Of a DNA stretch of 64,000 nt, positions 1,926-54,809 are shown in pieces (the first letter of the stretch is position 1; the number at the start of each line of letters is the position of its first letter). Origin of the DNA: Candidatus Omnitrophota bacterium (GTDB lineage Bacteria > Omnitrophota > Gorgyraeia > Gorgyraeales > Gorgyraeaceae). The stretch is taken from assembly GCA_041653835.1 (NCBI GenBank), contig JBAZEP010000001.1, positions 19,082-83,081 of the forward strand, given 5' to 3'. Below the pieces are notes generated by a model, which made no database searches, was not told the origin of the DNA, and saw only the letters and a list, made by a program, of their open reading frames with translations. Both the position numbers and the translations under genes were made by a program.

Positions 1926-1974
1926 ATATGCCACCTCGCTATTTAATAACATGTTTAGCTCCATAGACAATTCA

Positions 1975-2029
1975 CCCCATTCCAAATCTGATAGCAAGTT
2001 TCCGGCTATCTATTAGATTTGGAACGGGG
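1975..2029. repeat. 55-bp palindromic leader element with terminal inverted repeats CCCCATTCCAAATC...GATTTGGAACGGGG (copy A)
   Basis: Arms CCCCATTCCAAATCTGATAG / CTATCTATTAGATTTGGAACGGGG form a ~20-bp stem. It lies in the 5' leader of the HTH-pilMN operon and shares its termini with the element at 7197-7252. Confidence 0.6.
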
Positions 2030-2082
2030 ATTTTCTATATCAAAAACCTAAAAACAGCATGTATCCTGATACAGAGTGATAC

Positions 2083-2111
2083 AACTATATACTATCTGAT
2101 AGTATTTGTCA
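2083..2111 (-). promoter_or_regulatory. Sigma70-type promoter TTGACA-N17-TATAGT with a perfect 13-bp palindrome ACTATCAGATAGT in the spacer (candidate operator)
   Basis: Minus strand reads TTGACAaatactatcagatagtaTATAGT. The -35 box is at 2106-2111 and the -10 box at 2083-2088 in plus coordinates. The palindrome at 2091-2103 shares the CTATC(A/T)GATAG motif with the leader hairpin at 1975-2029. Confidence 0.45.
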
Positions 2112-2130
2112 AGATAACGGGGTAAAAATA

Positions 2131-2167
2131 GTGACTAGTGACTAGTGATTAGTAGCTGGTAAGTGGT
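2131..2167. repeat. Tandem degenerate heptamer repeat (GTGACTAGT GACTAGT GATTAGT AGCTGGT AAGTGGT)
   Basis: Five consecutive 7-mers with the pattern RNYWRGT lie between the stop of the 615-aa gene and the HTH promoter. Confidence 0.4.
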
Positions 2168-2186
2168 TTGAAATAAATGGGTTGAG

Positions 2187-4034
2187 TTATTCTTCTTTCC
2201 AGAACCTGAAAGGCTTCTTTTTTTCCGGAACAGGCTTTACAGCTCCTTTTTCGCTTATGGTCCAGGTCCTTTCCGCTGGAGAAGGATCCATTTCATCGAG
2301 ATCTATCTTAGTGTTCTTGTTGACATCCTTGGCGGATTGGACCTTAAAATAGTGGTTGCCTTCTTTCAGATCCTTTCTTGTGACAGAGGTATCTTTGACC
2401 CAGCCGGACCATTCCTCATCGTCAAACTTCCACCTGAACAGGCAGTCTTCAACGCTCCCTTTGAACGTAAAAAGGGCTTCTTTGGATTTTGTCCATAAGC
2501 TCGGCCCGCTTGTAATTATGGTATCGGGCGCTATTATTATAAGCTCTATAGTATCGCTGTATATCTCGGATTCGTTCCCCGCCATATCCTTGAATTTTAT
2601 ATATACCCTGCGGGTACCGCTTATAGGTGTAAGCGTCCAGTTTTCTTTCCTGGTCTTAAATGATTCCCATTGCTCGGTATCGAACACGCCGTCGTTTGAA
2701 AGCACCATACCCTGGACCTCTGTAGTAGAATCAGTGGCGCCAAGCATAAGATTGACATATACGGAATTCGTGACGGCATCCTGATTATTTATTATAAGAT
2801 ACCCCGCGGGGCCTTTCGTATCGACCGTGAAGCTCCACACTACTTGGGATGCCTTATTGCCTACAAAATCAGCGACTTCCAGGGAGATCACGTTCTCGCC
2901 TTCGCTAAGCGGTACAGAGGGGATATATACCACGCTCTGCGCTTCATCATCATACGCGGCGTTTACATTGGATTTATTTACCTTCATATTTATGGCGTCC
3001 GGATTCACGCCGCTCTTGTCATCCGTGGCGCTAATGGTAACGGTCGGCTTATCATCAGCCAGGATCGAGCCCCTGGAAGGAGAATAGCTGCCTATGACAG
3101 GGCTGCCCCTGTCTATCCATAATTCAAAAGAGGCTATATCTCCCCAGTTACCGGCTGAATTCTCGGCCTTGATGCTGAATACCCTTACCCCGTCCCCGAG
3201 AAGGTCCTGGGGAGTCTGATAAAAATACCCGGTTGTATCTATCTCATTATCCGGGATATCGCCCCACGCGTAACTATAGCCTACGGGCTGGGCGCCTTCC
3301 GTAGGATATTCCCAATATATGTACGGATCCCCGCAGTCCTGCCATAATTTAGCTGGTATGTTTTGCCCGCCGGGCGCGGTCTGCGCCCATACCACAGGCA
3401 CCTCGATCTGGCCTGACGCTATCTTGAACCCGTTTACGGCGGTTTCCCAGCCTGAATAGTCATACCCATCGCTTACCCTCACCCGCCATTTGTAATCCAC
3501 ATAACCTTCCGTGGTAGGAAGTATGGGCGTGGTATATTCCTGGGAACCGGATTTGATTATGCCGGAATCAACTTCTATTGTCTGAAAATTATTCTTGGAT
3601 AGCTGGACATGGTAATAACGCTGGGGGTCTTCATCCTTATCCGCGACAGCCCATTTAAGCGTCGGGGGGTTGTTAAGCGTAGGCTGTCCGTCGTTATACG
3701 CGGTTATGGTCAAGCGGGGTATGGCATTTTTGGTGGAAAGCAGCCCGCCGTATATCTTGTAGCTGGTGCCCGCGACAGCCCCGGTAGCCAGGGCGGAACC
3801 AACGCTGTTCTCGGCGTTATAACTTTTCGAAACCACGCTCGCGCCTCCGCTGTCCGCCACGCCGGTATGCAGCTTATAATTTTTACTGCTGGATACGCTG
3901 GCCGTTACTATGCCGGAAAAAATAAAAAAGACCGCTGTTAAGAACACAACGGCCTTCAATATAAGGTATCTCTCTGGTTTAAATCGGCTCATATTTAAAT
4001 CAATTATATTCTCACAATATAAAAAATCAAGCAA
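2187..4034 (-). CDS. Membrane-anchored cell-surface protein, Thr/Ser/Gly-rich beta-rich repeats, function unknown (pilus-locus associated)
   Basis: 615 aa with an N-terminal TM/signal anchor (LILKAVVFLTAVFFIFSGIVTA) and a long extracellular region with Ig-like/beta-sandwich character. No catalytic motif was recognised. It is co-oriented with and 9 nt downstream of the GspK-like gene. Confidence 0.45.
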   Translation of the reverse strand: MLDFLYCENIIDLNMSRFKPERYLILKAVVFLTAVFFIFSGIVTASVSSSKNYKLHTGVADSGGASVVSKSYNAENSVGSALATGAVAGTSYKIYGGLLSTKNAIPRLTITAYNDGQPTLNNPPTLKWAVADKDEDPQRYYHVQLSKNNFQTIEVDSGIIKSGSQEYTTPILPTTEGYVDYKWRVRVSDGYDYSGWETAVNGFKIASGQIEVPVVWAQTAPGGQNIPAKLWQDCGDPYIYWEYPTEGAQPVGYSYAWGDIPDNEIDTTGYFYQTPQDLLGDGVRVFSIKAENSAGNWGDIASFELWIDRGSPVIGSYSPSRGSILADDKPTVTISATDDKSGVNPDAINMKVNKSNVNAAYDDEAQSVVYIPSVPLSEGENVISLEVADFVGNKASQVVWSFTVDTKGPAGYLIINNQDAVTNSVYVNLMLGATDSTTEVQGMVLSNDGVFDTEQWESFKTRKENWTLTPISGTRRVYIKFKDMAGNESEIYSDTIELIIIAPDTIITSGPSLWTKSKEALFTFKGSVEDCLFRWKFDDEEWSGWVKDTSVTRKDLKEGNHYFKVQSAKDVNKNTKIDLDEMDPSPAERTWTISEKGAVKPVPEKKKPFRFWKEE

Positions 4035-7987: not shown

Positions 7988-8134
7988 GTCACTTATGGAA
8001 CGAACGAAGCGAGTGAACATAAGTGACTGCGCGAATTAAATACTTGACATTTTTCTATTGTTTTAACCGCTGGAAAAATGTCAAGTATCAAATTCAGCCA
8101 TATGACTTACGTCGTTTCACTCCGTAAGTCATGG
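7988..8134. repeat. Cluster of three perfect intergenic hairpins between gpmA and the membrane-protein gene
   Basis: H2 is GTCACTTATG/CATAAGTGAC at 7988-8027. H1 is ATACTTGACATTTTTC/GAAAAATGTCAAGTAT at 8040-8088, a 16-bp stem. H3 is CATATGACTTACG/CGTAAGTCATGG at 8098-8134. H3 contains the 14-mer CTCCGTAAGTCATG that recurs at 27048-27061. Confidence 0.55.
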
Positions 8135-20622: not shown

Positions 20623-20628
20623 ATCCCA

Positions 20629-20665
20629 AAGGCGACAAAAATGACACTGTCACTTTTGTCGCCTT
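20629..20665. repeat. Core-palindrome element copy 1: 12-bp perfect stem AAGGCGACAAAA/TTTTGTCGCCTT around TGACACTGTCA
   Basis: Intergenic between batC and batD. Sequence is aaggcgacaaaa-aTGACACTGTCAc-ttttgtcgcctt. The same 11-nt core recurs at 36827-36837 and 49265-49275 inside different perfect stems. Confidence 0.7.
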
Positions 20666-20676
20666 ACGTAGTGTCG

Positions 20677-22447: not shown

Positions 22448-23455
22448 CTAAGGTATTTTTCTGAACATGGTGTTGGCCAGCGCTGTCTCCGCGAGAAGCA
22501 GTATGAAACCGGGCAATATGAAAAACCCCGCTAACTCGGTATAGTCCGCGTATTCCTTTGTCTCTATCTTTGTTTTTTCAAGCTTGCCTATCGTATCGTA
22601 AATCTCCCTCAATCCGTCTTTATCCTTTGCCCTGAAATACAACCCGCCCGTATCGGCGGCTATAGTTTTAAGGAGTGCTTCGTCTATTTCTGTTTCCACG
22701 CGCACATATCTTTTTCCGAAAAAAGGATCATCCATCGGATACATGGCGCCGCCCGGTTTTCCCGCGCCTATTGTATATATCTTTATCCCGAGCGCCTTTG
22801 CCGCCCTGGCCGCGGTCAGGGGATCTATGGTGCCGGTGTTATTGATGCCATCCGTCAAAAGTATGATTATCCTGCTTTTCGCGCCGGAATCCCTGAGCCT
22901 GTTTACGGCATTGGCGATCGCCATGCCTATGGCGGTCCCGTCTTCTATCATGCCTATATCCACTTTATCCAGGAGCTCCAGGAGCGTCCCATAGTCGATA
23001 GTGAGGGGGCACTGGGTCATGCTGTATCTTGAAAAAATAACCAGGCCAATCCTGTCATTCTGCCTGGATATTATGAACTCTCTTAAAGCATCTTTTGCCG
23101 CGCCCAATCTGTTCTGCGGGACAAAATCTTCGGCTTTCATACTGCCCGAGATATCCAGAGTAAGCATAATATCGATGCCCTCGGTTATTATCTCTTCCTC
23201 CTTTTGCCCTGCCTGGGGCCTGGCGAGCGCCAGGATAAAAATAAATACAGCGGCCATCCTCAATATCATAGGCAGATGCCTGTATCTGACGCGCATCCCG
23301 GGAGTTATATTCTTGGGAATGGCTATGTCTGAAAATATGATCCCTGCTTCGCGCAATTTAGCCCGCCTGAAATAATACCAGATAAGCAACGGGATGACAC
23401 CGAGCAATAATAAAAATAAAGGATTGGCGAATCTCATTAAAACCTCAAAACCCAA
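22448..23455 (-). CDS. batA: BatA-like von Willebrand factor A domain membrane protein
   Basis: Carries N-terminal TM helices and a VWA MIDAS motif DISGSM ... LLTDGINN. Confidence 0.8.
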   Translation of the reverse strand: MGFEVLMRFANPLFLLLLGVIPLLIWYYFRRAKLREAGIIFSDIAIPKNITPGMRVRYRHLPMILRMAAVFIFILALARPQAGQKEEEIITEGIDIMLTLDISGSMKAEDFVPQNRLGAAKDALREFIISRQNDRIGLVIFSRYSMTQCPLTIDYGTLLELLDKVDIGMIEDGTAIGMAIANAVNRLRDSGAKSRIIILLTDGINNTGTIDPLTAARAAKALGIKIYTIGAGKPGGAMYPMDDPFFGKRYVRVETEIDEALLKTIAADTGGLYFRAKDKDGLREIYDTIGKLEKTKIETKEYADYTELAGFFILPGFILLLAETALANTMFRKIP

Positions 23456-23467
23456 ACCCGCATTGGG

Positions 23468-23980
23468 TCACCCCAATGCGGGTTTGGGGGTGGTCACATC
23501 TACAATCTCTTCCGCTTTTTTATATGCCTCTTCTGTTTCTTCCACGGCAGGCGTATATTTCGCGAATTTAACCATATCGCAGTCTTCAAGAAAACTATTT
23601 ATCGTGTCCGCGTGCCGGCGTTCCATGCCTGTAGACCTCATCTCCTGAAAAAGCTCCCACGTAGTCCTGTCCATGGCGGATATGACAAACCTGTTTTCTA
23701 TATATGCCCTGATTATATCCGAAAGCCTTATATAATATTCTTTGATCATTCCTTTTTCCGCGAGCCGCATGCCTTTAAGGGCATTTAAAGCATCCCTGGC
23801 TATCTCATCCGCCGGCCTCGGGGACAGGGAAGGCCCCTCTTTTTTCCTTTTTTTAATCCTAAAGTACATAATGACTGCTGTTATGATAAGTAACGCTAAA
23901 AGCAAAGCAAGAAGCCGGGCAAGCGGAAATTTCCCGGCTATATCCACAATGTCTTTTAACGGCCTTATATCATCATTCAT
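23468..23980 (-). CDS. Small membrane protein of MoxR-VWA operons (DUF4381-like)
   Basis: 170 aa with one N-terminal TM helix and a cytoplasmic helical domain. It sits between the DUF58 and VWA genes, as in described Bat operons. Confidence 0.45.
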   Translation of the reverse strand: MNDDIRPLKDIVDIAGKFPLARLLALLLALLIITAVIMYFRIKKRKKEGPSLSPRPADEIARDALNALKGMRLAEKGMIKEYYIRLSDIIRAYIENRFVISAMDRTTWELFQEMRSTGMERRHADTINSFLEDCDMVKFAKYTPAVEETEEAYKKAEEIVDVTTPKPALG

Positions 23981-26091: not shown

Positions 26092-26096
26092 ATTTA

Positions 26097-26169
26097 CCTC
26101 CGAATTTTGTGAAACAAAATTCGTCCCGAGTCCGCCCCGCCACCAAAGATGGCGGTCGAGACGAGGGAC
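26097..26169 (-). ncRNA. Structured 5' leader element copy 1: P1 GUCCC/GGGAC enclosing a CGCCA/UGGCG hairpin, then an AU-rich hairpin, then SD GGAGG and the moxR ATG
   Basis: Minus strand reads GTCCCTCGTCTCGACCGCCATCTTTGGTGGCGGGGCGGACTCGGGACGAATTTTGTTTCACAAAATTCGGAGGtaaatATG. Two further copies, with compensatory stem substitutions, are at 53859-53924 and 43683-43757. Confidence 0.6.
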
Positions 26170-26177
26170 TTTTTCCT

Positions 26178-28086: not shown

Positions 28087-29334
28087 ATGCTTATGTTAAA
28101 ACAAATTATTTCATCCAAGTTTTGTCTTTCATGCGACGTGTGCTGCAGGTTCCTGGATATAAAAGCGCAACTGAGGCCTGTTTTTCTCCCGTTTGAAATA
28201 ACTTCCAGGATAAAGCCGCATCTGGACGAGACGCGCCGCGTAAAGTTAAAACCTTTCAAAAATATGTACACCTGCCGGTTTTTCGGCAAAACAGGCAATA
28301 AATGTTCTATTTACGCGAAAAGGCCTTTTGATTGCAGGCTTTACCCGTTTGCGATAATGTTCGATGAGAAAAGAGAAAACATCATCCTCGGCATAGATAA
28401 AAAATGCCCGTTTGCCGTAGAGCCCGGTAACGAAAGAACGATAAAAAACTATTTTCACTATCTCGTGGAGTTACTGGAAAGAAAAGATATCGCGTCTTCA
28501 ATAGCCGAGAATCCGGCATTCATAGGCGATTTTCAGGAAGACGTACTGCAATTCTCTTCCCTGGATACCCTTAAAAAACTCATCATCGATAATCCCGAAA
28601 AAAAAGGTTTTAAGGAAATTTCGCTGAAGGATAAAGCGCTGTTCGATGACTTTTTTAAAAAAACCGGGCGGATTGACTCTAGCAGGAATTTCGTAAGCCT
28701 CTACATCTGGAAAGAGAAAAACCCGGTCTGGTGGAAGATGAAAGACAAAAGCCCGGAGATACTGCTTGAGACAGAGTCCGGCTATATAGATTTCAATTCC
28801 CTGGAAAAATTCCAGGACTATATATACCTTAGAGAAGACCTGTCAAGCCTTAAAGGTAATAAATATAAACACAAAAGATCGGCGTGCAATTATTTCTCGA
28901 AAAATTATAAATTTAAATATCTCCCTTATAAACAAAGTATGAAGAATGACTGTTTTAAATTATTTTCAAAATGGGCTTCCGCCAGAAAACAAAAATTTCC
29001 GGATCTTTATTACTATAAACTTCTCGAGGATAGTTTTTCCGCTCATAAACTGGCGATAGAAAATTATAAAGCCCTAGGATTGACAGGCAGGGTCATAAAG
29101 ATAAGGGGAAAGATAGCCGCCTATACCTTTGGGTTTGAACTGAAGGAAGATATGTTCTGCATCCTGCTGGAAGTCTGCGATTTGAAATTCAAAGGCATCT
29201 CGGAATTTATTTTCAGGGAGTTCTGCGGGGAAATGGCTCAATATAAATACATCAACACCATGGACGACTCAGGCCTTGAAAACCTGCGTATATCAAAACT
29301 ATCTTACCATCCTGTTTATCCCCAGCAGATATGA
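28087..29334 (+). CDS. Fusion protein: YkgJ-type CxxCxxCC Fe-S/Zn-binding domain + C-terminal DUF2156-like (acyltransferase-fold) domain
   Basis: The N-terminus has CLSCDVCC ... C..C...RP.DCRLYP, the UPF0153/YkgJ signature. The C-terminal ~250 aa resemble the LPG-synthase C-terminal domain family; this assignment is tentative. Confidence 0.45.
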   Translation: MLMLKQIISSKFCLSCDVCCRFLDIKAQLRPVFLPFEITSRIKPHLDETRRVKLKPFKNMYTCRFFGKTGNKCSIYAKRPFDCRLYPFAIMFDEKRENIILGIDKKCPFAVEPGNERTIKNYFHYLVELLERKDIASSIAENPAFIGDFQEDVLQFSSLDTLKKLIIDNPEKKGFKEISLKDKALFDDFFKKTGRIDSSRNFVSLYIWKEKNPVWWKMKDKSPEILLETESGYIDFNSLEKFQDYIYLREDLSSLKGNKYKHKRSACNYFSKNYKFKYLPYKQSMKNDCFKLFSKWASARKQKFPDLYYYKLLEDSFSAHKLAIENYKALGLTGRVIKIRGKIAAYTFGFELKEDMFCILLEVCDLKFKGISEFIFREFCGEMAQYKYINTMDDSGLENLRISKLSYHPVYPQQI

Positions 29335-32300
29335 TCGAAATCGCAGTTACCGCACTTGTCTTTATCCCGGCAAGGAAGCTTCTCAAAACGCCGGTCCTGG
29401 ATATTTTTCCACGCGTTCTTTATAATAGCCGTCATCTCGTCCACCATGTCTTCCGTGAGCGCTACCCGGAATTCAGTGGGCTCAGCTTCCTTGATGCCGT
29501 ATTTTATCAGATTGGCTTTCGCGGGTTCCACAAATACAAGGACGCCGTGGCTTACAAGCGTATCCTTATCCTGCCTGGTCTTGTCCCTTTCGTACAAAAG
29601 TTTATAGCACACAAGCTGCCTCAGGTAGCCGTCACACTCCTCGCTTTCCAGGCCCTTGACCCCGAATATGCCTCTGGCGTGTTTATTGGGCTGGCCTGTT
29701 TTATAATCCACCACCCTTACACACTTATTTTTTTCGTCTTCCATCTCCAGTTTATCGTACTTACCCGTAAAAATTATACCATCTATATTGACAGGCATTT
29801 TATTCTCCAGGCCGATAGGCTTTACAGGCGACTTGGAAATCTTACTGTAATATTTCCTTAAGCCTTCGAACCTTTCTATGCAGTTCAGTTCTATTGCCTT
29901 TTCAGGGCCCTGGTATTTTAAAGTTTCTATGAACCTCTCCTTGAAAAATTGGAAATTCGGGAACTTTTTTGTCCTGATATATTCCCTGTACAGGTTTTCC
30001 AGGCCCGCATGCACCGCGTTTCCGAAAATAAGGCTTCGTTTTTTAGCCGAAGGCAGCATTAAGACATTGTCATAAAGGAACTTTCTCCTGCACCTGAGAT
30101 AGTTATCCAGACTTGTGGGGTTTAACGCCATGTCCCTGACCAGGTCGCTTAAAACCTTTTCTGTTCCGATAAATGGCTCCATGAGATCTGTTTTTTCAAG
30201 AAAACTTACCAGGATGTCTTCTTCTTTAAAGCCGGCCTCTTCGGACACTATGCCGAGTTTATGCAGGAATACGCTGGGAACGGAATTTTCCTCGGGACTC
30301 GCGGTAAAAACAATATTACTCCTTGCCCGCGATACAGCCACGTAAAAAAGCCTGGTCTCGTCATGAGCGCTCAATTCTTTGAGCCTTTCCCTGCTGTCAA
30401 CCTTTTCGACGGTTTTCATCAGGCCCCTGGGAAGCGGGATAGTGTCCGGCCTTGGTTTTATGGGCCAGCTTTTATCCTGGAGGCAGAACGGGATTATGAC
30501 ACTATGGAATTCCTGGCCTTTGGAACCATGCGCTGTAAAGATCCTTACTCCGTTTTGCGTCATTGTCACGAGTTCCCCCTGTAGCGCCATGCCATGTTCA
30601 TTCCTTGTCCTTATTTCCTCCACAAAATCCTTTAAAGTCATGCCGGGCTTTGACAGGTCCGAACTCTTTACCATATTTATAAAAGACGAAAGCGCCCTGA
30701 GTTCCCTGATCCTCATAACATCTTCTTTATCGTATTTCTCCAGGATATGCTTATAGATCCCTGCATCCTCTATATATTCCATCAGGATCGTATGCGCCGG
30801 CTTGAACGGGGAATTCTCAATAAGTTTTTTTATTATGTCCCTCGCGTTTTTCAGATTTTTTGAGAGCTCCTCAGAATTTAAAAGCTCCGATAATATCTTA
30901 GCGTCTTCTTTATTTCTCTTTTTTTTGTTGACCTTGGCTATCAGGCCCAGCGTATCCTCAAGCGGAATTTTAAAATAATCCGCCGTCAGGATCCTGTACA
31001 GGATCCTATCCCTGTCTTCATAATTCTCCGGCTCCAGGCCCGCGAGCTCCAATACATCCAGCATCTGCCTGACCCTGGGCTCTGGTCTTATGTCCTCTTT
31101 TCCGTCTGTCGCGTACGGGATGCCCGCCTGCAGAAATTTATCTATTACCCTTAATATCAGATCCCTTTTTCTGACCAGGACCGCTATATTATTGTAAGGA
31201 TTATTCCTGTCTTCGGGGCCCAGGTCTTTCGAGGATTCGATCTCAGCCTTGAACTCTTTTACTTTTTTCACGATAAAATTCAGCTCTTCGGCCTCCCGGG
31301 TAAACTCGTGATAGCTTATCGACTTTTTCCTGAAATCCACTATGTTTATGAGCTCTTTATCGCCTGTCCGTTCCGCTTCCGGCACCTCTTTTATTAATGT
31401 CCGGGCAAGTCCTATTATCTCTTTTGTCGATCGGTAGTTATTTTTCAAAGATATTGTCTCTATGTTTTTGAATTTCTTTTTCAGTTCCCTGAAATTACCT
31501 ACACTGGCGCCTTGGAACCTGTATATGGACTGGTCATCGTCTCCCACACAGCATATGTTCGGGCCGGCGCCTTTCAGCACGGAAAATAATAATTTAAGCT
31601 GGGCGCCATTCGTATCCTGGAACTCGTCCACCATAAAAAACTTATACTGGTCCTGGTATTTTTTCTTTAAAATCGGCTCGCTGTCCAGCGCGCGGATAGC
31701 CATCATTATCATATCGTCATAATCATATCTGCCCCGCTCGTCAAAAACCTCTTTATTGCCTTTGGATTTAAGTTTCTCGTACTGGTCATAGACAATAGCC
31801 AGCGCCTTTATCCTTGGTATATGTTTTTCCTCTATATGCACGCCGTCGGGTTTTATCGTCTTTACATATTCCAGGAATTCCTTCGGGTCCACGCCCTCCC
31901 TTTTAAGGTCGCTTATCTTTTTCTGTATCTCTTTCTCGTAACTATACGGCGCGTTGAAAGGCCTTATTTCAGAGATGCCCTGGGCGTGATCCAGGATATA
32001 CTCTATTGCCCTCACCTGCTCGATATCCTCTATCTGTATCCTCTCCTGGATATAATTAGCCGCTTCCTCGGAATCCAGCAGAATCGAATTCGCGAAACTA
32101 TGGAATGTCGCGACATATATGTCATAACCCTTAAATCCTATGATCTTCGCGAGCCGCTCTTTCATTGCCTTGGCTGCTGCGTTCGTGTAAGTAAGTATCA
32201 GGATATTTTCCGGAAGGGCTTTTTCAAGACGTATTATATTCGCGGCGCGCACCGAGAGTATCTGGGTCTTGCCTGTCCCTGGCCCAGCGAGCACCAGCAC

Positions 32301-32375: not shown

Positions 32376-32387
32376 ATCAAAACGCCT

Positions 32388-32428
32388 AAGGGAACATTTA
32401 AGACATTGTCTTAAATGTTCCCTTAGAG
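32388..32428. repeat. 41-bp perfect palindrome (20-bp arms CTAAGGGAACATTTAAGACA / TGTCTTAAATGTTCCCTTAG)
   Basis: Lies between the helicase-nuclease start and the flavin reductase stop. Its centre is GACAtTGTC. Confidence 0.6.
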
Positions 32429-33035: not shown

Positions 33036-33096
33036 AGACGTCTACCTAACTGATGGGAGTCGGACTCCCTATGGGAGTCCGACTCCCATAGTCTAC
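33036..33096. promoter_or_regulatory. Tandem twin 15-bp perfect palindromes GGGAGTCGGACTCCC and GGGAGTCCGACTCCC, flanked by direct GTCTAC repeats (candidate operator pair)
   Basis: The palindromes lie at 33055-33069 and 33073-33087, 18 bp centre to centre. GTCTAC occurs at 33040-45 and 33091-96. They sit in the divergent region between the flavin reductase gene and the NSS transporter, directly upstream of the -35 box. Confidence 0.5.
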
Positions 33097-33101
33097 AGCG
33101 A

Positions 33102-33130
33102 TTGACAGATGCGCTGCTATTGAGTATAAT
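33102..33130 (+). promoter_or_regulatory. Perfect-consensus sigma70 promoter TTGACA-N17-TATAAT giving a (near-)leaderless transporter mRNA
   Basis: The -35 box is at 33102-33107 and the -10 box at 33125-33130. ATG at 33141 lies only ~10 nt after the -10 box and no SD is present. Confidence 0.55.
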
Positions 33131-36803: not shown

Positions 36804-36814
36804 CAACCTATCGC

Positions 36815-36849
36815 AATGTTATATTCTGACACTGTCAGAATATAACATT
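36815..36849. repeat. Core-palindrome element copy 2: stem AATGTTATATTC/GAATATAACATT around TGACACTGTCA
   Basis: It fills almost the whole 48-nt gap between the tauE-like stop and the nth start. The 11-nt core is identical to that at 20641-20653 and 49265-49275, but the stem sequence is completely different. Confidence 0.7.
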
Positions 36850-36851
36850 AG

Positions 36852-37211
36852 CTATTTGCCGAAGAACATATATATAGAAATAAATAGAAGCAGACATGCA
36901 AAAAGCCTCTTCAGCATGAGATTAGGCACTAACTGAACAACCGAAGCGCCTATAAAGCCTCCTATAATGAACCCTAAAGCCACGAATGCCGCTACCTTTA
37001 TATTTATATTCCCTGCCTTATAATATGTTATTACAGCCAGTATCCCTACCGGCAATAGAAGCGCGGCGAGTGCCGTGCCCTGGCTAAGGTGCTGGGAAAA
37101 TTTAAAAATGTAAATAAGAGCAGGGATCAATATTACAGCCCCTCCTATGCCGAAGAAGCCCGAGAATACCCCCGTTACAAGCCCTATTAATATGCTAAAA
37201 AAAGTGTTCAT
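36852..37211 (-). CDS. Half-size TauE/SafE (TSUP) family membrane protein (4 TM)
   Basis: 119 aa with a GIGGAVILIPAL motif. This is one repeat unit of the usually duplicated TSUP fold. Confidence 0.55.
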   Translation of the reverse strand: MNTFFSILIGLVTGVFSGFFGIGGAVILIPALIYIFKFSQHLSQGTALAALLLPVGILAVITYYKAGNINIKVAAFVALGFIIGGFIGASVVQLVPNLMLKRLFACLLLFISIYMFFGK

Positions 37212-43682: not shown

Positions 43683-43757
43683 CCTGCCCTCTCAAATTTT
43701 ACGAAGTAAAATTTGATCCCGAGCGATCATATCCATTCCTATCGAGCCGCGAGGGAC
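43683..43757 (-). ncRNA. Structured 5' leader element copy 3 (upstream of the EamA-like gene)
   Basis: Minus strand reads GGTCCCTCGCGGCTCGATAGGAATGGATATGATCGCTCGGGATCAAATTTTACTTCGTAAAATTTGAGAGGGCAGGATG. It has the same P1 (GUCCC/GGGAU) and UC/UC internal loop as copies 1 and 2. P1b is GCG/CGC where copy 1 has GUC/GAC. The AU hairpin has two compensated changes relative to copy 1. Confidence 0.55.
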
Positions 43758-43832
43758 CTCCTACTTCAAGTTTAAATATAAGATAACATATCTAATTTGC
43801 AAATGGAATAAAATAATAAACTCGTATATAAT

Positions 43833-49174: not shown

Positions 49175-49252
49175 ATAATCTATCCTCTTTTTAGCATGCC
49201 CGTGCTACTTATTTTAAAATTATAGCACTATTTTCCGCAAAGTCAAGCACAA

Positions 49253-49287
49253 AAGTTACATTTGTGACACTGTCACAAATGTAACTT
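49253..49287. repeat. Core-palindrome element copy 3: stem AAGTTACATTTG/CAAATGTAACTT around TGACACTGTCA
   Basis: Lies between the large glycoside-phosphorylase-like gene (stop overlapped) and nikR. It is the third occurrence of the identical 11-nt core inside an unrelated perfect 12-bp stem. Confidence 0.7.
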
Positions 49288-52200
49288 AGGAGAGATGGGC
49301 GTCTATTCTTTTTATTTTTCGGGTTCTTATGTCCAGGGCGTACGGCGGGTTTATTATGTCTCCCTGGATGTCTATTTTTCTTCCATCGTCGTATTCCAAT
49401 GTCATGGAAGTTATCCTCGCGGAATTTTTACCTGCGGTATTTTTCATTTCGGGATTGTGGTAAACTACGAGGGTTTTACCTAAAAATTTGAACGCGTATG
49501 TATTTTTTGGAAAGCCTTTGGAGGCCTTTTTCGTAAAAAGCCTTGACGGCAGCGCCGGGCTGAACCTCAGGCTTAACCCGTGTTTTTCATTTACGAAAAA
49601 CGGATTCCTGCCAGCGCTCATGACCAGCCATATATTCAGCATTTCCGCGGTAGAACCGCTCAGGCGCGCGACAAAACCCCTGCCGTGCATCTCAGGCTCG
49701 GGAAAAGCGCTGGAAACTATAAAAGAAGAATTCTCGAAGACGCTTCTCCCATATCTCCCGGGCTTTTGGAACGGGATCAGGACATTTTCGAACTCCGCGA
49801 AAAAGTCCTCATAAAGCCCTTTTTTCAATATCTCGAGCAGGTATTTATATTCCATGTGGAGCCATATTGATTCGTTTTCCAGCCAGCCCGGGGTAAATAT
49901 GGTGGAGCGGCCCGCTTCTTTGGATACATCTTCCAGGGATTCATTGATCCTGTACATCTTTAATTTGACGTCGTACAATCCGGTCTTTTTGAGAGAGTCA
50001 TACAATGCCTTTGCTTTTCCGGCGTCAGATTCGGTCTTCAACGCCCTTACGGGCCCTTCCAGGAACAGGGGCAGCCTTATACTCTTGAATTCCGTCGGCC
50101 TTACCAGGGGAAGGCCTTTTACGGGATCCTGCCTGCCCAATAACTCATATTTCACGACCTCATTTATAAAATATGTGGTGTACGCTTTTTTAGCCGGGTC
50201 ATACGCCTTCGCGGCCGCGCTGTCCGCCTTCAAAAGGAACCTGTCCAGCGCGGTCCTCAATTCCCCGGCGTTCATGGTTTTTTCTCTTCCGCTGAATCCG
50301 AGTTTTGTTCTATGCCTGTATTCTTCTTTGGCGGAATTGGACTTGTCCCAATAATTAAAATCGCTGCCGTCTTCTTTTATCGCATCCTCCAGATTTTTTA
50401 TGAACTCATGCAGTTCTTCCGGGAGATTAATGGTCAAACAATCATCTATATCGAGCTTTTTAAAGGCATTCAGTATGAATACAAGCTGGCGTTTCAATTC
50501 AAAGACCTCGGGAACCGAGGAACCGCAAAGCCCGGGCAGGCCGTTCATGGAATCGCACCAGCCCGGCTTATCAGCCTCCATTTCAATGCCTATGCCGGAC
50601 GGGTCGAGCGAAGATATCTTGTTTGCCGCGACGCAAAGCATCTTTACCAGGAGCGAAACCTTGTAAATATCCCCTTCCCCGTTATTCATCCGCATCGCGT
50701 GGGGATCGACAACGCGCTGTTTTATCAGATGGGTCTTTTTGGCGTCATGCTCCAGCGAATGGTATTGCCTTACAACACCCTCGCTCTTTAGAAGATATCT
50801 CCCTGAACGAGGTTTCACACAGAACATGTTGTCATAAAAGGTAAATTCTTTCTTATCCAGGAATATTTCTTTTAACTTATCGGGGTATACCCCCAGATAA
50901 CTTTCTACCAGATCCAGATTATAAGTCCAATGATCCACCCAATACCCTTCCCCGTGTTCCGCATCATAGATAATAACACAGTTTTTTGACAGGATATCGA
51001 GTAATTCGCGCCAGGATATTTTTAATTTTATGCCTTGCTTCTCTATTTCCATAAATAAGCTGCCGGGCGTAAACTCCGCGGACAGGGCAGGCTCTAATTT
51101 TTCGATATCAGCCGCGCTCATACTGTCTTTAAGCGCTGCCCTTAACGCCCCGGGGTCTTTCAACTTGAACTTTACCCCCCTTAAGACCAGCGGGTTATAT
51201 CCGTCCGACTGTATAAGGTTATAGAAATACAGTATATTGAAGTCCTTTATATCCGGGTCAAAGAATACATCGCTCCTGCGGTTCTGGTTTATATCCCTGT
51301 AGTTGCCGTCGCCCTGCGAAAAATAAGCCGGCTCTATCGAAAACTTATTGTAATCCCTTTCTAGATCCCCGTGTTTGCGCGAATACACATAAAACGCGTA
51401 GGTGTGGGCATTGGAACATGTCAGGGGTATCCCGCCCCTTATCACGTTGTCCAGGAATGCCTGGCCGCAATATGTATCGTACCTTTCATCCGCGCTCGCG
51501 GTAAAGATATTACCCCGGATCTCATTTATTATATTTTTATTCTCTTCTCTTTTCTCCGAGAAAAACTGTTCCGTTGACAGGATAGGGAGGAAAGAATTCA
51601 ATTTATCCTTCGAGCTCATGTGGCCCGATATGGCGTTGACTTTGATCTCTTCGCCCTTCCCGAGCTTAAAAGCCGCGTAAGCCATGGCGCTGGGCAATTT
51701 ATTCCGGTTCATCTGGTTCTTTGGTATCTTGAACCTGGCGGCGTCAACAAAATTAACAGGGTATGAAAAATCCGTTATATTATCGAATATCGCTTCCGGA
51801 TCTACCACGACAGGGAGCGGCCTTCCTGAAACAGAAGAGAGATAAAAATTCCCCTCTTCCACGAACTTGACCTCTGAGGCATCCTTGGGATCGACCTTTA
51901 ACCTGTAAAAAGGCGCGTTGCGCTCCAGGTTCTCCACCACCATCCATGCCTCGATAGTGCGCCTCATTTTTTGCAGAAAGAAATTGGAAGTGCCGTAAGG
52001 GATTATAAGAGGGGCACCGTCCAGCATTTCGCAGGAGATATCTTTTTTGGAGATATTCCTGATGGTAACTATCCTGGCAAGCCCGGCGAAAGGCTGGTTC
52101 GGTATCGTAAAATATTTTACCTCCACGCTCAAACCCAGAGTGGAGTTTATTTCCTCGATCCTCAGCTCATGCCCGCTGACGAACATGCGCTGTTTTATGA

Positions 52201-53753: not shown

Positions 53754-53775
53754 TAAAAGGTTGGGCAGTTTAAGC

Positions 53776-53853
53776 TCATGCCCGGGAGCAAGTACTGCAG
53801 CCTTCTTTACAATGCGCCACAGGTCTTAACATATAATGTATCGTGACCTTCAT
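53776..53853 (-). CDS. Possible 25-aa upstream ORF (MKVTIHYMLRPVAHCKEGCSTCSRA) with strong SD, between leader element copy 2 and GH5
   Basis: GGAGG lies 5 nt upstream of ATG 53853..53851. The ORF ends 22 nt before the GH5 start. It is below the ORF-track size cutoff and whether it is coding is uncertain. Confidence 0.3.
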   Translation of the reverse strand: MKVTIHYMLRPVAHCKEGCSTCSRA

Positions 53854-53858
53854 GACAG

Positions 53859-53924
53859 CCTCCGAATTTTGTGGAACAAAATTCGTCCCGAGTCTCGCCA
53901 TCTACAGGTGGCGGAACGAGGGAC
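53859..53924 (-). ncRNA. Structured 5' leader element copy 2 (starts at the ogg stop codon, ends in the SD of the small ORF)
   Basis: Minus strand reads GTCCCTCGTTCCGCCACCTGTAGATGGCGAGACTCGGGACGAATTTTGTTCCACAAAATTCGGAGGctgtcATG. It is ~90% identical to copy 1 outside the loops. The P2 loop and the P3 loop (UCC vs UUC) differ. Confidence 0.6.
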
Positions 53925-53925
53925 C

Positions 53926-54555: not shown

Positions 54556-54572
54556 AGCTTCCGCTGTTAATG

Positions 54573-54809
54573 TCAGGTTATGCCGAGGGCGCGGGAGATA
54601 GCGTCCTTGTCAAAGCCCACTATTATAGTACCGTCTATATCCAGGACAGGCACTCCCATCTGGCCGGACTTTTCCATCATCTCGCTGCCCGCCTGGGGAT
54701 CGGCGCCCACGTCTATATTTTCGAACGGGATGTTGTTTTTCCTCAAAAAATCCTTTGTCATCATGCAATAAGAACACGTGGATGTGGAATATAGTTTAAC
54801 GTTAGGCAT
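54573..54809 (-). CDS. Glutaredoxin-like protein (CxxC thioredoxin fold)
   Basis: 78 aa with the CSYC active site in a thioredoxin-fold context (VKLYSTSTCSYCMMTKDFL), of Grx/NrdH type. Confidence 0.75.
   Translation of the reverse strand: MPNVKLYSTSTCSYCMMTKDFLRKNNIPFENIDVGADPQAGSEMMEKSGQMGVPVLDIDGTIIVGFDKDAISRALGIT

Follow-up and report, generated by a model that had tools for sequence, protein, structure and literature searches.

The window, i.e. the whole stretch of DNA analysed here, comprises 64 kb of contig JBAZEP010000001.1 from a genome of Candidatus Omnitrophota, the name under which its proteins are annotated (e.g. MFA5388150.1). Several of its intergenic gaps contain palindromes of one family, which we take to be very probably of the repetitive extragenic palindrome (REP) type, with a cognate REP-associated tyrosine transposase (RAYT) in this lineage. 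Four sites were named S1 to S4, to which a fifth member was added; contigs of relatives are designated by L numbers. Copies were scored with R2, a covariance model trained on non-window loci alone, which found exactly five members in the window (S1 to S4, E 4e-10 to 3e-7; the fifth, E 9e-5) and nothing else with an E value below 1. All five are intergenic and 35-51 bp long, and S1 to S4 occupy short gaps between minus-strand genes. The copies are given below with their neighbours, together with one putative remnant.

8039..8089: fifth family member, whose arms ATACTTGACATTTTT/AAAAATGTCAAGTAT fit the family and whose core is replaced by 19 unrelated nt; E 1.4e-4 with an earlier model, 9e-5 with R2.
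20627..20667: S1, REP-like palindrome (37 bp, 20629-20665) with one A/C mismatch beside the core TGACAcTGTCA, between a batC-like TPR gene (stop 20677) and a BatD gene (start 20622), both on the minus strand; R2 39 bits, E 1.3e-7.
32386..32426: S4, REP-like palindrome, perfect over 41 bp, core AGACAtTGTCT, with the TAA stop of a flavin-reductase-like gene inside the stem and the start of a UvrD/PD-(D/E)XK helicase-nuclease gene 10 nt on, both minus strand; R2 E 1.3e-8.
36812..36852: S2, REP-like palindrome, perfect over 35 bp (36815-36849), 2 nt past the stop of a TauE-like gene (TAG 36852-36854) and ~12 nt ahead of the nth start, both minus strand; R2 E 1.7e-7.
49250..49290: S3, REP-like palindrome, perfect over 35 bp (49253-49287), its outer stem overlapped by the TAA stop of the upstream 1096-aa gene, with nikR downstream on the minus strand; R2 E 4e-10.
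54556..54577: putative decayed remnant, of low confidence, a 22-nt spacer containing CTGTTAATGTCAG.

Arms, core and fold of the palindromes

The initial annotation had described three hairpins built on one identical 11-nt core, with the same central base in each, and this was borne out. The window contains the 11-mer TGACACTGTCA (TGACAcTGTCA) at exactly three places, 20642, 36827 and 49265, each time with C as the central base on the plus strand; 0.01 occurrences were expected, and none of 100 shuffles reached three. Each hairpin had also been called a perfect palindrome, which is correct for S2 and S3 but not for S1, where the A/C mismatch interrupts the 37 bp; in the minus-strand (sense) transcript this mismatch would read as a G.U pair. 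A fourth palindrome, of 41 bp, had been suspected to be a diverged relative. It is indeed a family member according to R2 (S4), although its coordinates are 32386-32426 rather than 32388-32428. The arms, in turn, had been reported to differ completely, but they share the consensus AAG(k)T(k)ACAyTTy, and a model trained outside the window recovers all of them. By eye, AAG..ACAwww.wGACA is common to the arms of S1, S3 and S4, and S2 aligns to S3 with indels. The arms are diverged copies of one consensus, kept complementary.

Folding of S1 to S4 as single-stranded DNA (ssDNA) and as RNA gave a stem of 16-19 bp closed by a 3-nt loop. The energies were -15 to -19 kcal/mol for ssDNA (-13 to -19 when all five members are included) and -20 to -29 kcal/mol for RNA, with z-scores of about -6 to -12 for DNA and RNA folds. 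Since the loop has only 3 nt, the 11-mer is mostly stem, and the conserved 11-nt loop proposed initially has to be abandoned. In an alignment of 99 sequences, 95.7% of the cells were paired, versus 80% in shuffles, and changes on both sides were seen for 14 of the 17 pairs. Columns left free by the search pattern covary: 5/37 is occupied by GC (44), CG (30) and AU (10), 6/36 by UA (70) and GC (26), and 8/34 by UA (61) and GC (26). The pair at position 19 covaries too (T-A 17, C-G 17). At position +-6, a Y is found on the left and an R on the right, nearly independently of each other.

The idea of an identical loop carried by freely varying stems was not upheld either, as the outer arms (AAGTTGACA and similar) are conserved more widely across genomes than the core, and the core changes from one RAYT lineage to another. 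Among the repeats that flank RAYT genes (see next section), it reads TGACA.TGTCA, CAACA.TGTTG, TTACA.TGTTA, AGGTA.TACCT, CGGTA.TACCG, CTGCA.TGCAT or AAGCA.TGCTT, depending on the lineage. The 11-mer shared by S1 to S3 is a core variant typical of the window genome, made of the stem top plus the triloop, and the core is plausibly the part read by the cognate enzyme. The window's TGACA-C-TGTCA, with its rare C/G centre, is also shared by the RAYT-flanking copies of the single-amplified genome (SAG) AM-312-B13 and by one dispersed copy on another contig of that genome.

A dispersed variant subfamily (L130 12908, L136 4416, L144 11814, L105 2899, L100 8811) has the core GTGCC-W-GGCAC between unchanged outer arms, CTAACTTTACAA...TTGTAAAGTTAG. 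The TGGCAC of this core resembles a sigma54 -24 box, with no proper -12 element at the right spacing. Promoters, for which TTGACA in core or arms and TGGCAC in the variant core had made the family a candidate, were rejected, as inspection revealed no consistent -10 or -12 at the right spacing.

A core of the form TGACA-N-TGTCA could also be a duplex DNA operator for a dimeric regulator, an alternative raised by the initial annotation, or the site of an organiser such as matS. Position +-6 does act as two independent half-sites, with Y on each half, and S3 lies just upstream of the nikR promoter described below. A literature match, a MatP paper containing the 11-mer, prompted a comparison with matS: GTGACACTGTCAC of S3 (within 49259-49281) matches perfectly what we take to be the matS consensus of E. 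coli MatP, GTGACRNYGTCAC, a 13-bp palindrome. We judge this match coincidental, and matS was rejected: G is present at both +-6 positions only in S3, not in S1 or S2, the core of S4 is AGACA, and the family has Y/R at +-6. MatP, besides, is known from enterobacteria and vibrios. An operator would not need arms of 17-20 bp that covary in each copy; the previous stop or the next start is only a few nt away in four of the five window copies, which are not at promoters; and the core differs between related genomes and is missing from one window copy. Given these specific arms, positions and variable cores, we regard the operator as extremely unlikely.

The Y1/HUH transposase gene and its flanking repeats

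A REP/RAYT-like ssDNA hairpin was among the candidates of the initial annotation, and the transposase that it implies was found in relatives, flanked by copies of the family. The gene was located by inspecting what lies between closely spaced pairs of elements; a regular-expression scan for HUH and Y motifs over 507 open reading frames (ORFs) gave no match, the Y-motif pattern being too narrow. On L058, a contig of SAG AM-312-B13, two copies bracket an ORF of 284-300 aa (1971-2873, minus strand), one of them over the RAYT stop codon and the other ~45 nt ahead of its ATG. Its product matched Pfam Y1_Tnp (PF01797) with 40.7 bits (gathering score 23, E 2.9e-10) and NCBIfam REP_Tyr_transpos (NF047646) with 59 bits (E 4.8e-16), and it has a C-terminal helix-turn-helix (HTH). 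The search for homologues returned 697 proteins, many named Omnitrophota or Omnitrophica, and PF01797 was present in nearly all of the top 120. Three groups of residues are invariant in 16 homologues with 44-61% identity, namely N75, H76 and H78 (HuH, N-H-x-H), Y135, I136, N139 and P140 (Y-I-x-x-N-P), and a Y-x-W-S-S motif; the HuH and class 2 Y---NP tyrosine motifs are as defined in PMC6006769.

An AlphaFold model of the L058 enzyme (predicted local distance difference test score, pLDDT, 79; predicted template-modelling score, pTM, 0.77) was compared with the PDB. The best fold match was 4ER8_A, the E. coli RAYT with a REP hairpin (E 1.9e-5, target-normalised TM 0.75, 159/165 residues), and the next ones were the TnpA proteins of IS608, IS200 and ISDra2. 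The enzyme is a RAYT-like form, with a Y1_Tnp core and then a C-terminal HTH, and represents a lineage-specific HUH/Y1 tyrosine transposase.

Neighbourhoods were then taken for L058 and eight further homologues at 51-61% identity to it, i.e. for nine distinct Omnitrophota RAYT proteins. Repeats of the family abut the gene in all nine. They form strong hairpins in eight, usually on both sides of the gene and sometimes as two or three copies upstream; the ninth lineage has three copies of a related, poorly folding repeat. A hom-thrC-RAYT-HTH-Tricorn_N neighbourhood recurs at four loci, which represent three distinct RAYT proteins, and in other lineages the gene is found within pur, atp or glycosyltransferase operons. 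The Logan assemblies contain, for many of the homologues from Omnitrophota, no contig longer than ~950-990 bp, and one such contig of 971 bp (L184) has both ends inside an element. Such short contigs evidently arise because the flanking repeats break short-read assembly. In one of the ATP synthase operons that hold a RAYT gene, a small GIY-YIG nuclease ORF of 97 aa is inserted close to it (L181 6429-6722), which was not called in the near-identical counterpart L182.

The window genome may encode such an enzyme as well. MFA5389728.1, annotated as 'transposase, partial' in an Omnitrophota metagenome-assembled genome (MAG), has an accession ~1,550-1,580 above those of the window proteins and comes second in identity among the matches of the SAG enzyme (66% over 72% of the query); it is possibly the window MAG's own RAYT. 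We conclude, with a probability of roughly 0.82, that the hairpins are a REP-like family with a cognate RAYT in Candidatus Omnitrophota, in a REPtron-like arrangement.

Distribution, genic context and turnover of the copies

A first pattern, ACA-N4-TGACACTGTCA-N4-TGT, was scanned over 185,579 reference genomes and gave 78 matches. These were mostly at chance level, non-palindromic and from unrelated taxa; the true relatives were in Omnitrophota, plus one match in a 'Planctomycetia' MAG, whose contig (L077) is 71-79% identical to Omnitrophota-like loci and probably mis-binned. Long perfect palindromes of like architecture, TAAGGTTACACTTYTGACA-C-TGTCARAAGTGTAACCTTA, were found in single-cell and metagenome genomes of Candidatus Omnitrophota. 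A 20-base family pattern retrieved 96 metagenome loci, versus ~1 by our own chance estimate, and more than 100 relatives are now at hand across metagenomes and Omnitrophota genomes. Related loci amounting to 324 kb hold ~57 copies, of which ~20 come in addition to the seeds, i.e. one per 13-16 kb, a density shared by the window, with its 5 copies in 64 kb. Extrapolating from these loci plus the window, the copy number would be in the low hundreds per genome. An Rfam scan of the whole window at gathering thresholds gave no match, and in the literature on Omnitrophota/Omnitrophica we found no report linking the phylum to RAYT, REPIN or relevant palindromic repeats.

Copies start between -7 and +12 nt relative to the upstream stop codon and end 10-30 nt ahead of the next start. 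The element often opens with the TAA itself, or its arm sequence GTTGACA includes a TGA. On the 3' side comes a purine-rich ribosome-binding sequence; a T-run of at least 4 follows only 4 of 69 copies, in agreement with the lack of U-tracts noted initially. S3, with its T-rich tail, is the exception and the sole copy to pass a simple terminator scan. As a general explanation, intrinsic terminators fit poorly, the hairpin being present and the T-tract nearly always absent. It was also correct that the three sites first described lie in short gaps between minus-strand genes, yet the co-directional setting is not special, the background being 88% of adjacent gene pairs in these loci (p = 0.21). 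Most copies are singlets, and tandem pairs are only occasional (L127, L172 and upstream of RAYT genes). Integron attC sites were rejected, on account of the housekeeping operons on either side and the lack of visible GTTRRRY/RYYYAAC boundaries.

Two further sequences were noted in the window. Directly past S3 and upstream of nikR, the minus strand contains a near-consensus sigma70-type promoter (49246-49219; TTGACT-16 nt-TATAAT with a TG extension, 11/12 matches), and the promoter flank beside S3, CAAGCACAAA, is kept in L166 and L148. At 23451-23488, a GC-rich 17-bp hairpin, CCCAAACCCGCATTGGG-TCAC-CCCAATGCGGGTTTGGG on the plus strand (GTGA on the minus), precedes a minus-strand TTTT and overlaps the stop of the gene 23468..23980. 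It has the shape of an intrinsic terminator, and such terminators therefore exist alongside T-tract-less REP hairpins in the window genome.

The location of the copies between stop and start codons would suit elements acting primarily as host RNA (terminators, 3'-end stabilisers, RNase III sites or translation uncouplers), with the repeats kept by host selection. The energies of the RNA folds, the G.U reading of the S1 mismatch on the sense strand, and S3, terminator-like by scan and then followed by a promoter, point the same way, as does the retention of S3, with compensatory changes, at orthologous positions of three genomes. In E. coli, REPs are known to stabilise the mRNA ahead of them, and translation is affected by REPs near stop codons. 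T-runs, however, are rare even though a canonical terminator hairpin exists at 23451-23488, and the sense-strand mismatches at position +-6 are C.A in 10 cases versus U.G in 9, that is, with no G.U preference and no RNA-strand signature. Frequent presence or absence among close relatives (below) argues against a required function per site, and copies bracketing a Y1 transposase gene in every lineage would be left unexplained. A primarily RNA-level role appears improbable. Owing to their location next to or over stop codons within operons, the copies are transcribed too, and a host-level RNA effect is possible; such a role is compatible with the REP/RAYT interpretation and may be a secondary one.

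Synteny with the window was found for three metagenome contigs, which are 70-78% identical to it. L166 and L148 both carry an orthologous copy of S3, whose arms differ by compensated changes (AAGTTACAT..G, AAGGTTACAC..C, AAGTTTACAC..C). S2 is absent from the orthologous junction of L110, which reads TAAATG, and S4 from the orthologous site of the same contig, where the junction is TAG-GGTAGAAAAT-ATG. Conversely, copies of L110 and L166 are missing from the orthologous window sites. At least 10 presence/absence cases at orthologous sites were found overall, others being L129 vs L121, L121 vs L160 and L136 vs L140. Empty sites are typically junctions at which stop and start codons overlap or abut (e.g. 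TAATG), and in filled sites the inserted segments measure 38-60 nt, often with ~10-20 nt beyond the palindrome, including a new ribosome-binding region. No consistent target duplication was seen in the alignments of filled and empty sites.

Two further observations concern such sites. The 22-nt spacer at 54556-54577 aligns with the core of a full element at the orthologous position of L166 (5375-5415), 10 of the 13 positions of CTGTTAATGTCAG being in agreement; the core is kept while both arms are gone, a pattern that simple deletion fits poorly. In L110 (10186-10226), an element lies between convergent genes which overlap by 19 bp in the window (29300-29335), and the plus-strand ORF appears to run through the element without a stop, altering its C-terminal residues.

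Dispersed and polymorphic copies are also what miniature inverted-repeat transposable elements (MITEs) would give if moved by a DDE-type transposase, e.g. an IS630-like enzyme with TA duplication. Many copies read TAAG...CTTA, and S4 compared with the empty site of L110 (TAG|G) fits TA-[35 bp]-TA. Position 19, however, covaries, as reported above, and so belongs to the palindrome rather than to a fixed TA duplication. The pairs of filled and empty sites lack a consistent duplication, their inserts vary in length over the range given, and copies flanked by C...G do not fit TA. The Y1 enzyme is the only neighbour that recurs, and no DDE transposase whose ends match was encountered. We hold the DDE alternative to be very unlikely.

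Changes that preserve the structure were observed between orthologous copies. In L130 vs L138, with ~92% flank identity, TGACA/TGTCA became CGACA/TGTCG and a symmetric 1-nt indel affected both arms; L158 vs L173 is a further such pair. Palindromy is maintained, whether by compensation in place or by copy replacement. Separately, L087 330 and L162 1049 have flanks 99-100% identical. Within the 41-nt element two positions differ; one copy is a perfect palindrome, whereas two mismatches are present in the other, which suggests either faster change within the element or a directed correction from arm to arm.

From the RAYT fold, the catalytic motifs, the bracketing of the gene, the pattern of gain and loss and the lack of target duplications, we infer that the RAYT catalyses mobilisation of the repeats on ssDNA; the part that it would recognise and any function of the RNA are likewise inferred. 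If the system works like TnpA-REP of E. coli and IS200/IS605, the hairpin would form on ssDNA, and the RAYT would recognise it, then cut and rejoin the strand. Copies would in this way spread to new intergenic spots, and be lost again, without target duplication. Complementarity of the arms would be preserved either by persistence or propagation of foldable copies alone, or by correction of one arm from the other.

Several results weigh against a REP/RAYT interpretation. In 69 oriented copies, no 5' GT[AG]G/CGTC foot shows up in the position counts for the 12 nt before and the 22 nt after the element, and the copies that flank RAYT genes lack it too. The L058 enzyme falls, with its 59 bits, below the curated cut-off of 80 for NF047646, and sequence-level searches of the PDB with the RAYT and its profile were not significant (4er8, E 0.84). 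No RAYT gene is found within the 64-kb window, the association being seen in relatives and not in the window genome. The metagenome set was picked with a palindromic pattern, which leaves unconstrained columns alone as covariation evidence, and the compensatory differences between orthologous copies could as well result from replacement by another copy as from evolution in place. Finally, the orientation of the central base in A/T-centred copies is unbiased (A:T 33:26 on the sense strand) and gives no sign of strand-specific insertion; the 9:1 ratio seen for G:C central bases on the sense strand comes from a small, non-independent sample and is not relied on.

A more far-reaching proposal, which we regard as tentative and rather doubtful, is that an HTH-bearing Y1 enzyme of a large orphan subclass (2.1/group 1/TIRYT-like) drives essentially perfect palindromes that act as intercistronic punctuation, a semi-domesticated organiser of operon expression instead of a passive repeat. 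The palindromes would then be kept perfect by active arm-to-arm correction or by host selection, and would land at TAATG-like stop/start junctions, supplying or keeping the stop codon in the stem, with a new ribosome-binding region after it.

Two other kinds of motif were noted in the window. The first, unrelated to these hairpins, is intergenic, conserved and present in three copies, at 26092-26177, 53754-53925 (5' part) and 43683-43771 (minus strand), as well as at L172 366 and at L174 333 and 6465. Its consensus is GAGGTCCCTCG..(variable hairpin)..GACTCGGGA-CGAATTTTGT-TTC-ACAAAATTCG-GAGG-N5-ATG; GTCCC and GGGAC can pair, and an AT-rich hairpin adjoins the ribosome-binding site. As the downstream genes are unrelated (MoxR AAA ATPase, GH5 cellulase, EamA), a gene-specific riboswitch can be discounted; the motif could be a generic leader or a further repeat family, and its best match among Rfam families was an insignificant one (TD-2, E 0.67). 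The second consists of two adjacent GGGAGTC-N-GACTCCC palindromes, ATGGGAGTCGGACTCCCAT AGGGAGTCCGACTCCCAT, at 33053-33091, in the divergent gap between the flavin-reductase-like gene (minus strand) and a 530-aa gene starting at 33102 (plus strand). Their sequence is suggestive of a tandem operator bound by a dimeric regulator.

Comparison with known systems

Among bacterial mobile repeats that are long-lived and vertically inherited, REP/RAYT systems provide the best example; nearly all of those characterised are from Proteobacteria, with a few from Cyanobacteria and Bacteroidetes. An abundant and well-defined system in Omnitrophota, an uncultivated phylum, would widen this range. It would also provide a concrete candidate DNA substrate for a clade of HTH-bearing Y1 enzymes whose relatives were thought to be REP-less, and its perfect stems, symmetric indels and orthologous gains and losses make a natural data set on how palindromes stay perfect. 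On the practical side, the repeats may serve as lineage markers and would account for fragmented Omnitrophota MAGs, in which many RAYT genes are alone on ~950-bp contigs.

With insertion sequences of the IS200/IS605 type (IS608, ISDra2), the Omnitrophota system shares the HUH/Y1 fold, a presumed ssDNA hairpin substrate and the lack of a consistent target duplication. The dispersed unit, however, is gene-free, with no tnpB; each RAYT gene lies, at the loci examined, in conserved synteny or in a housekeeping operon rather than as dispersed copies; and the element is one symmetric hairpin, whereas an IS has two unlike ends. Correia elements of Neisseria and other bacterial MITEs are likewise small, non-autonomous intergenic repeats that lie beside genes and form hairpins in transcripts. 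Correia elements measure 100-155 bp, with 26-bp terminal inverted repeats and a TA duplication. The Omnitrophota element has neither an internal segment nor a fixed duplication, and its partner is a Y1 enzyme, not a DDE one.

The closest resemblance is to REP/REPIN sequences and their RAYTs in E. coli, Pseudomonas and Stenotrophomonas (PMC3116915, PMC3479197, PMC6006769). As in these systems, the repeats are short extragenic palindromes (here 37-41 bp), dispersed in many copies and transcribed as part of operons or at operon ends; a single Y1/HUH gene is bracketed by its own repeat family in relatives, as in a REPtron, with conserved synteny; repeat variants differ between enzyme lineages, and the best fold match of the Omnitrophota enzyme is 4ER8. 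The described REP superfamilies are defined by a GT[AG]G or CGTC foot (PMC6006769; PMC3733652), whereas the Omnitrophota copies have no such foot at the 5' side. Their stems, moreover, are near-perfect, with a 3-nt loop and no bulges, they are mostly singlets instead of inverted REPIN doublets, and the upstream stop codon lies next to or inside them. The enzyme differs too, with ~300 aa, a C-terminal HTH and a score under the NCBIfam RAYT cut-off, and the host is Candidatus Omnitrophota.

In its motifs and architecture, the Omnitrophota RAYT resembles TnpA-Y1 subclass 2.1 (Bertels RAYT group 1; TIRYT), to which it may belong. Both have NH[x]H, Y[IV]HLNP and an SS after the tyrosine (here YRWSS; PMC6006769, Table 1), and both are long proteins with a C-terminal HTH_23/HTH_28-like domain. 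Subclass 2.1 genes are described as having no adjacent REP-like sequences ('REP: no'), the TIRYT inverted repeats being GGGG[AT][CG]A[CG] (PMC6006769), whereas the Omnitrophota gene is flanked by hairpin repeats which are also dispersed in the genome. The element is of a known kind, present in a new lineage and in an unusual form: the GTAG foot is missing, the stems are near-perfect and the RAYT has an HTH.

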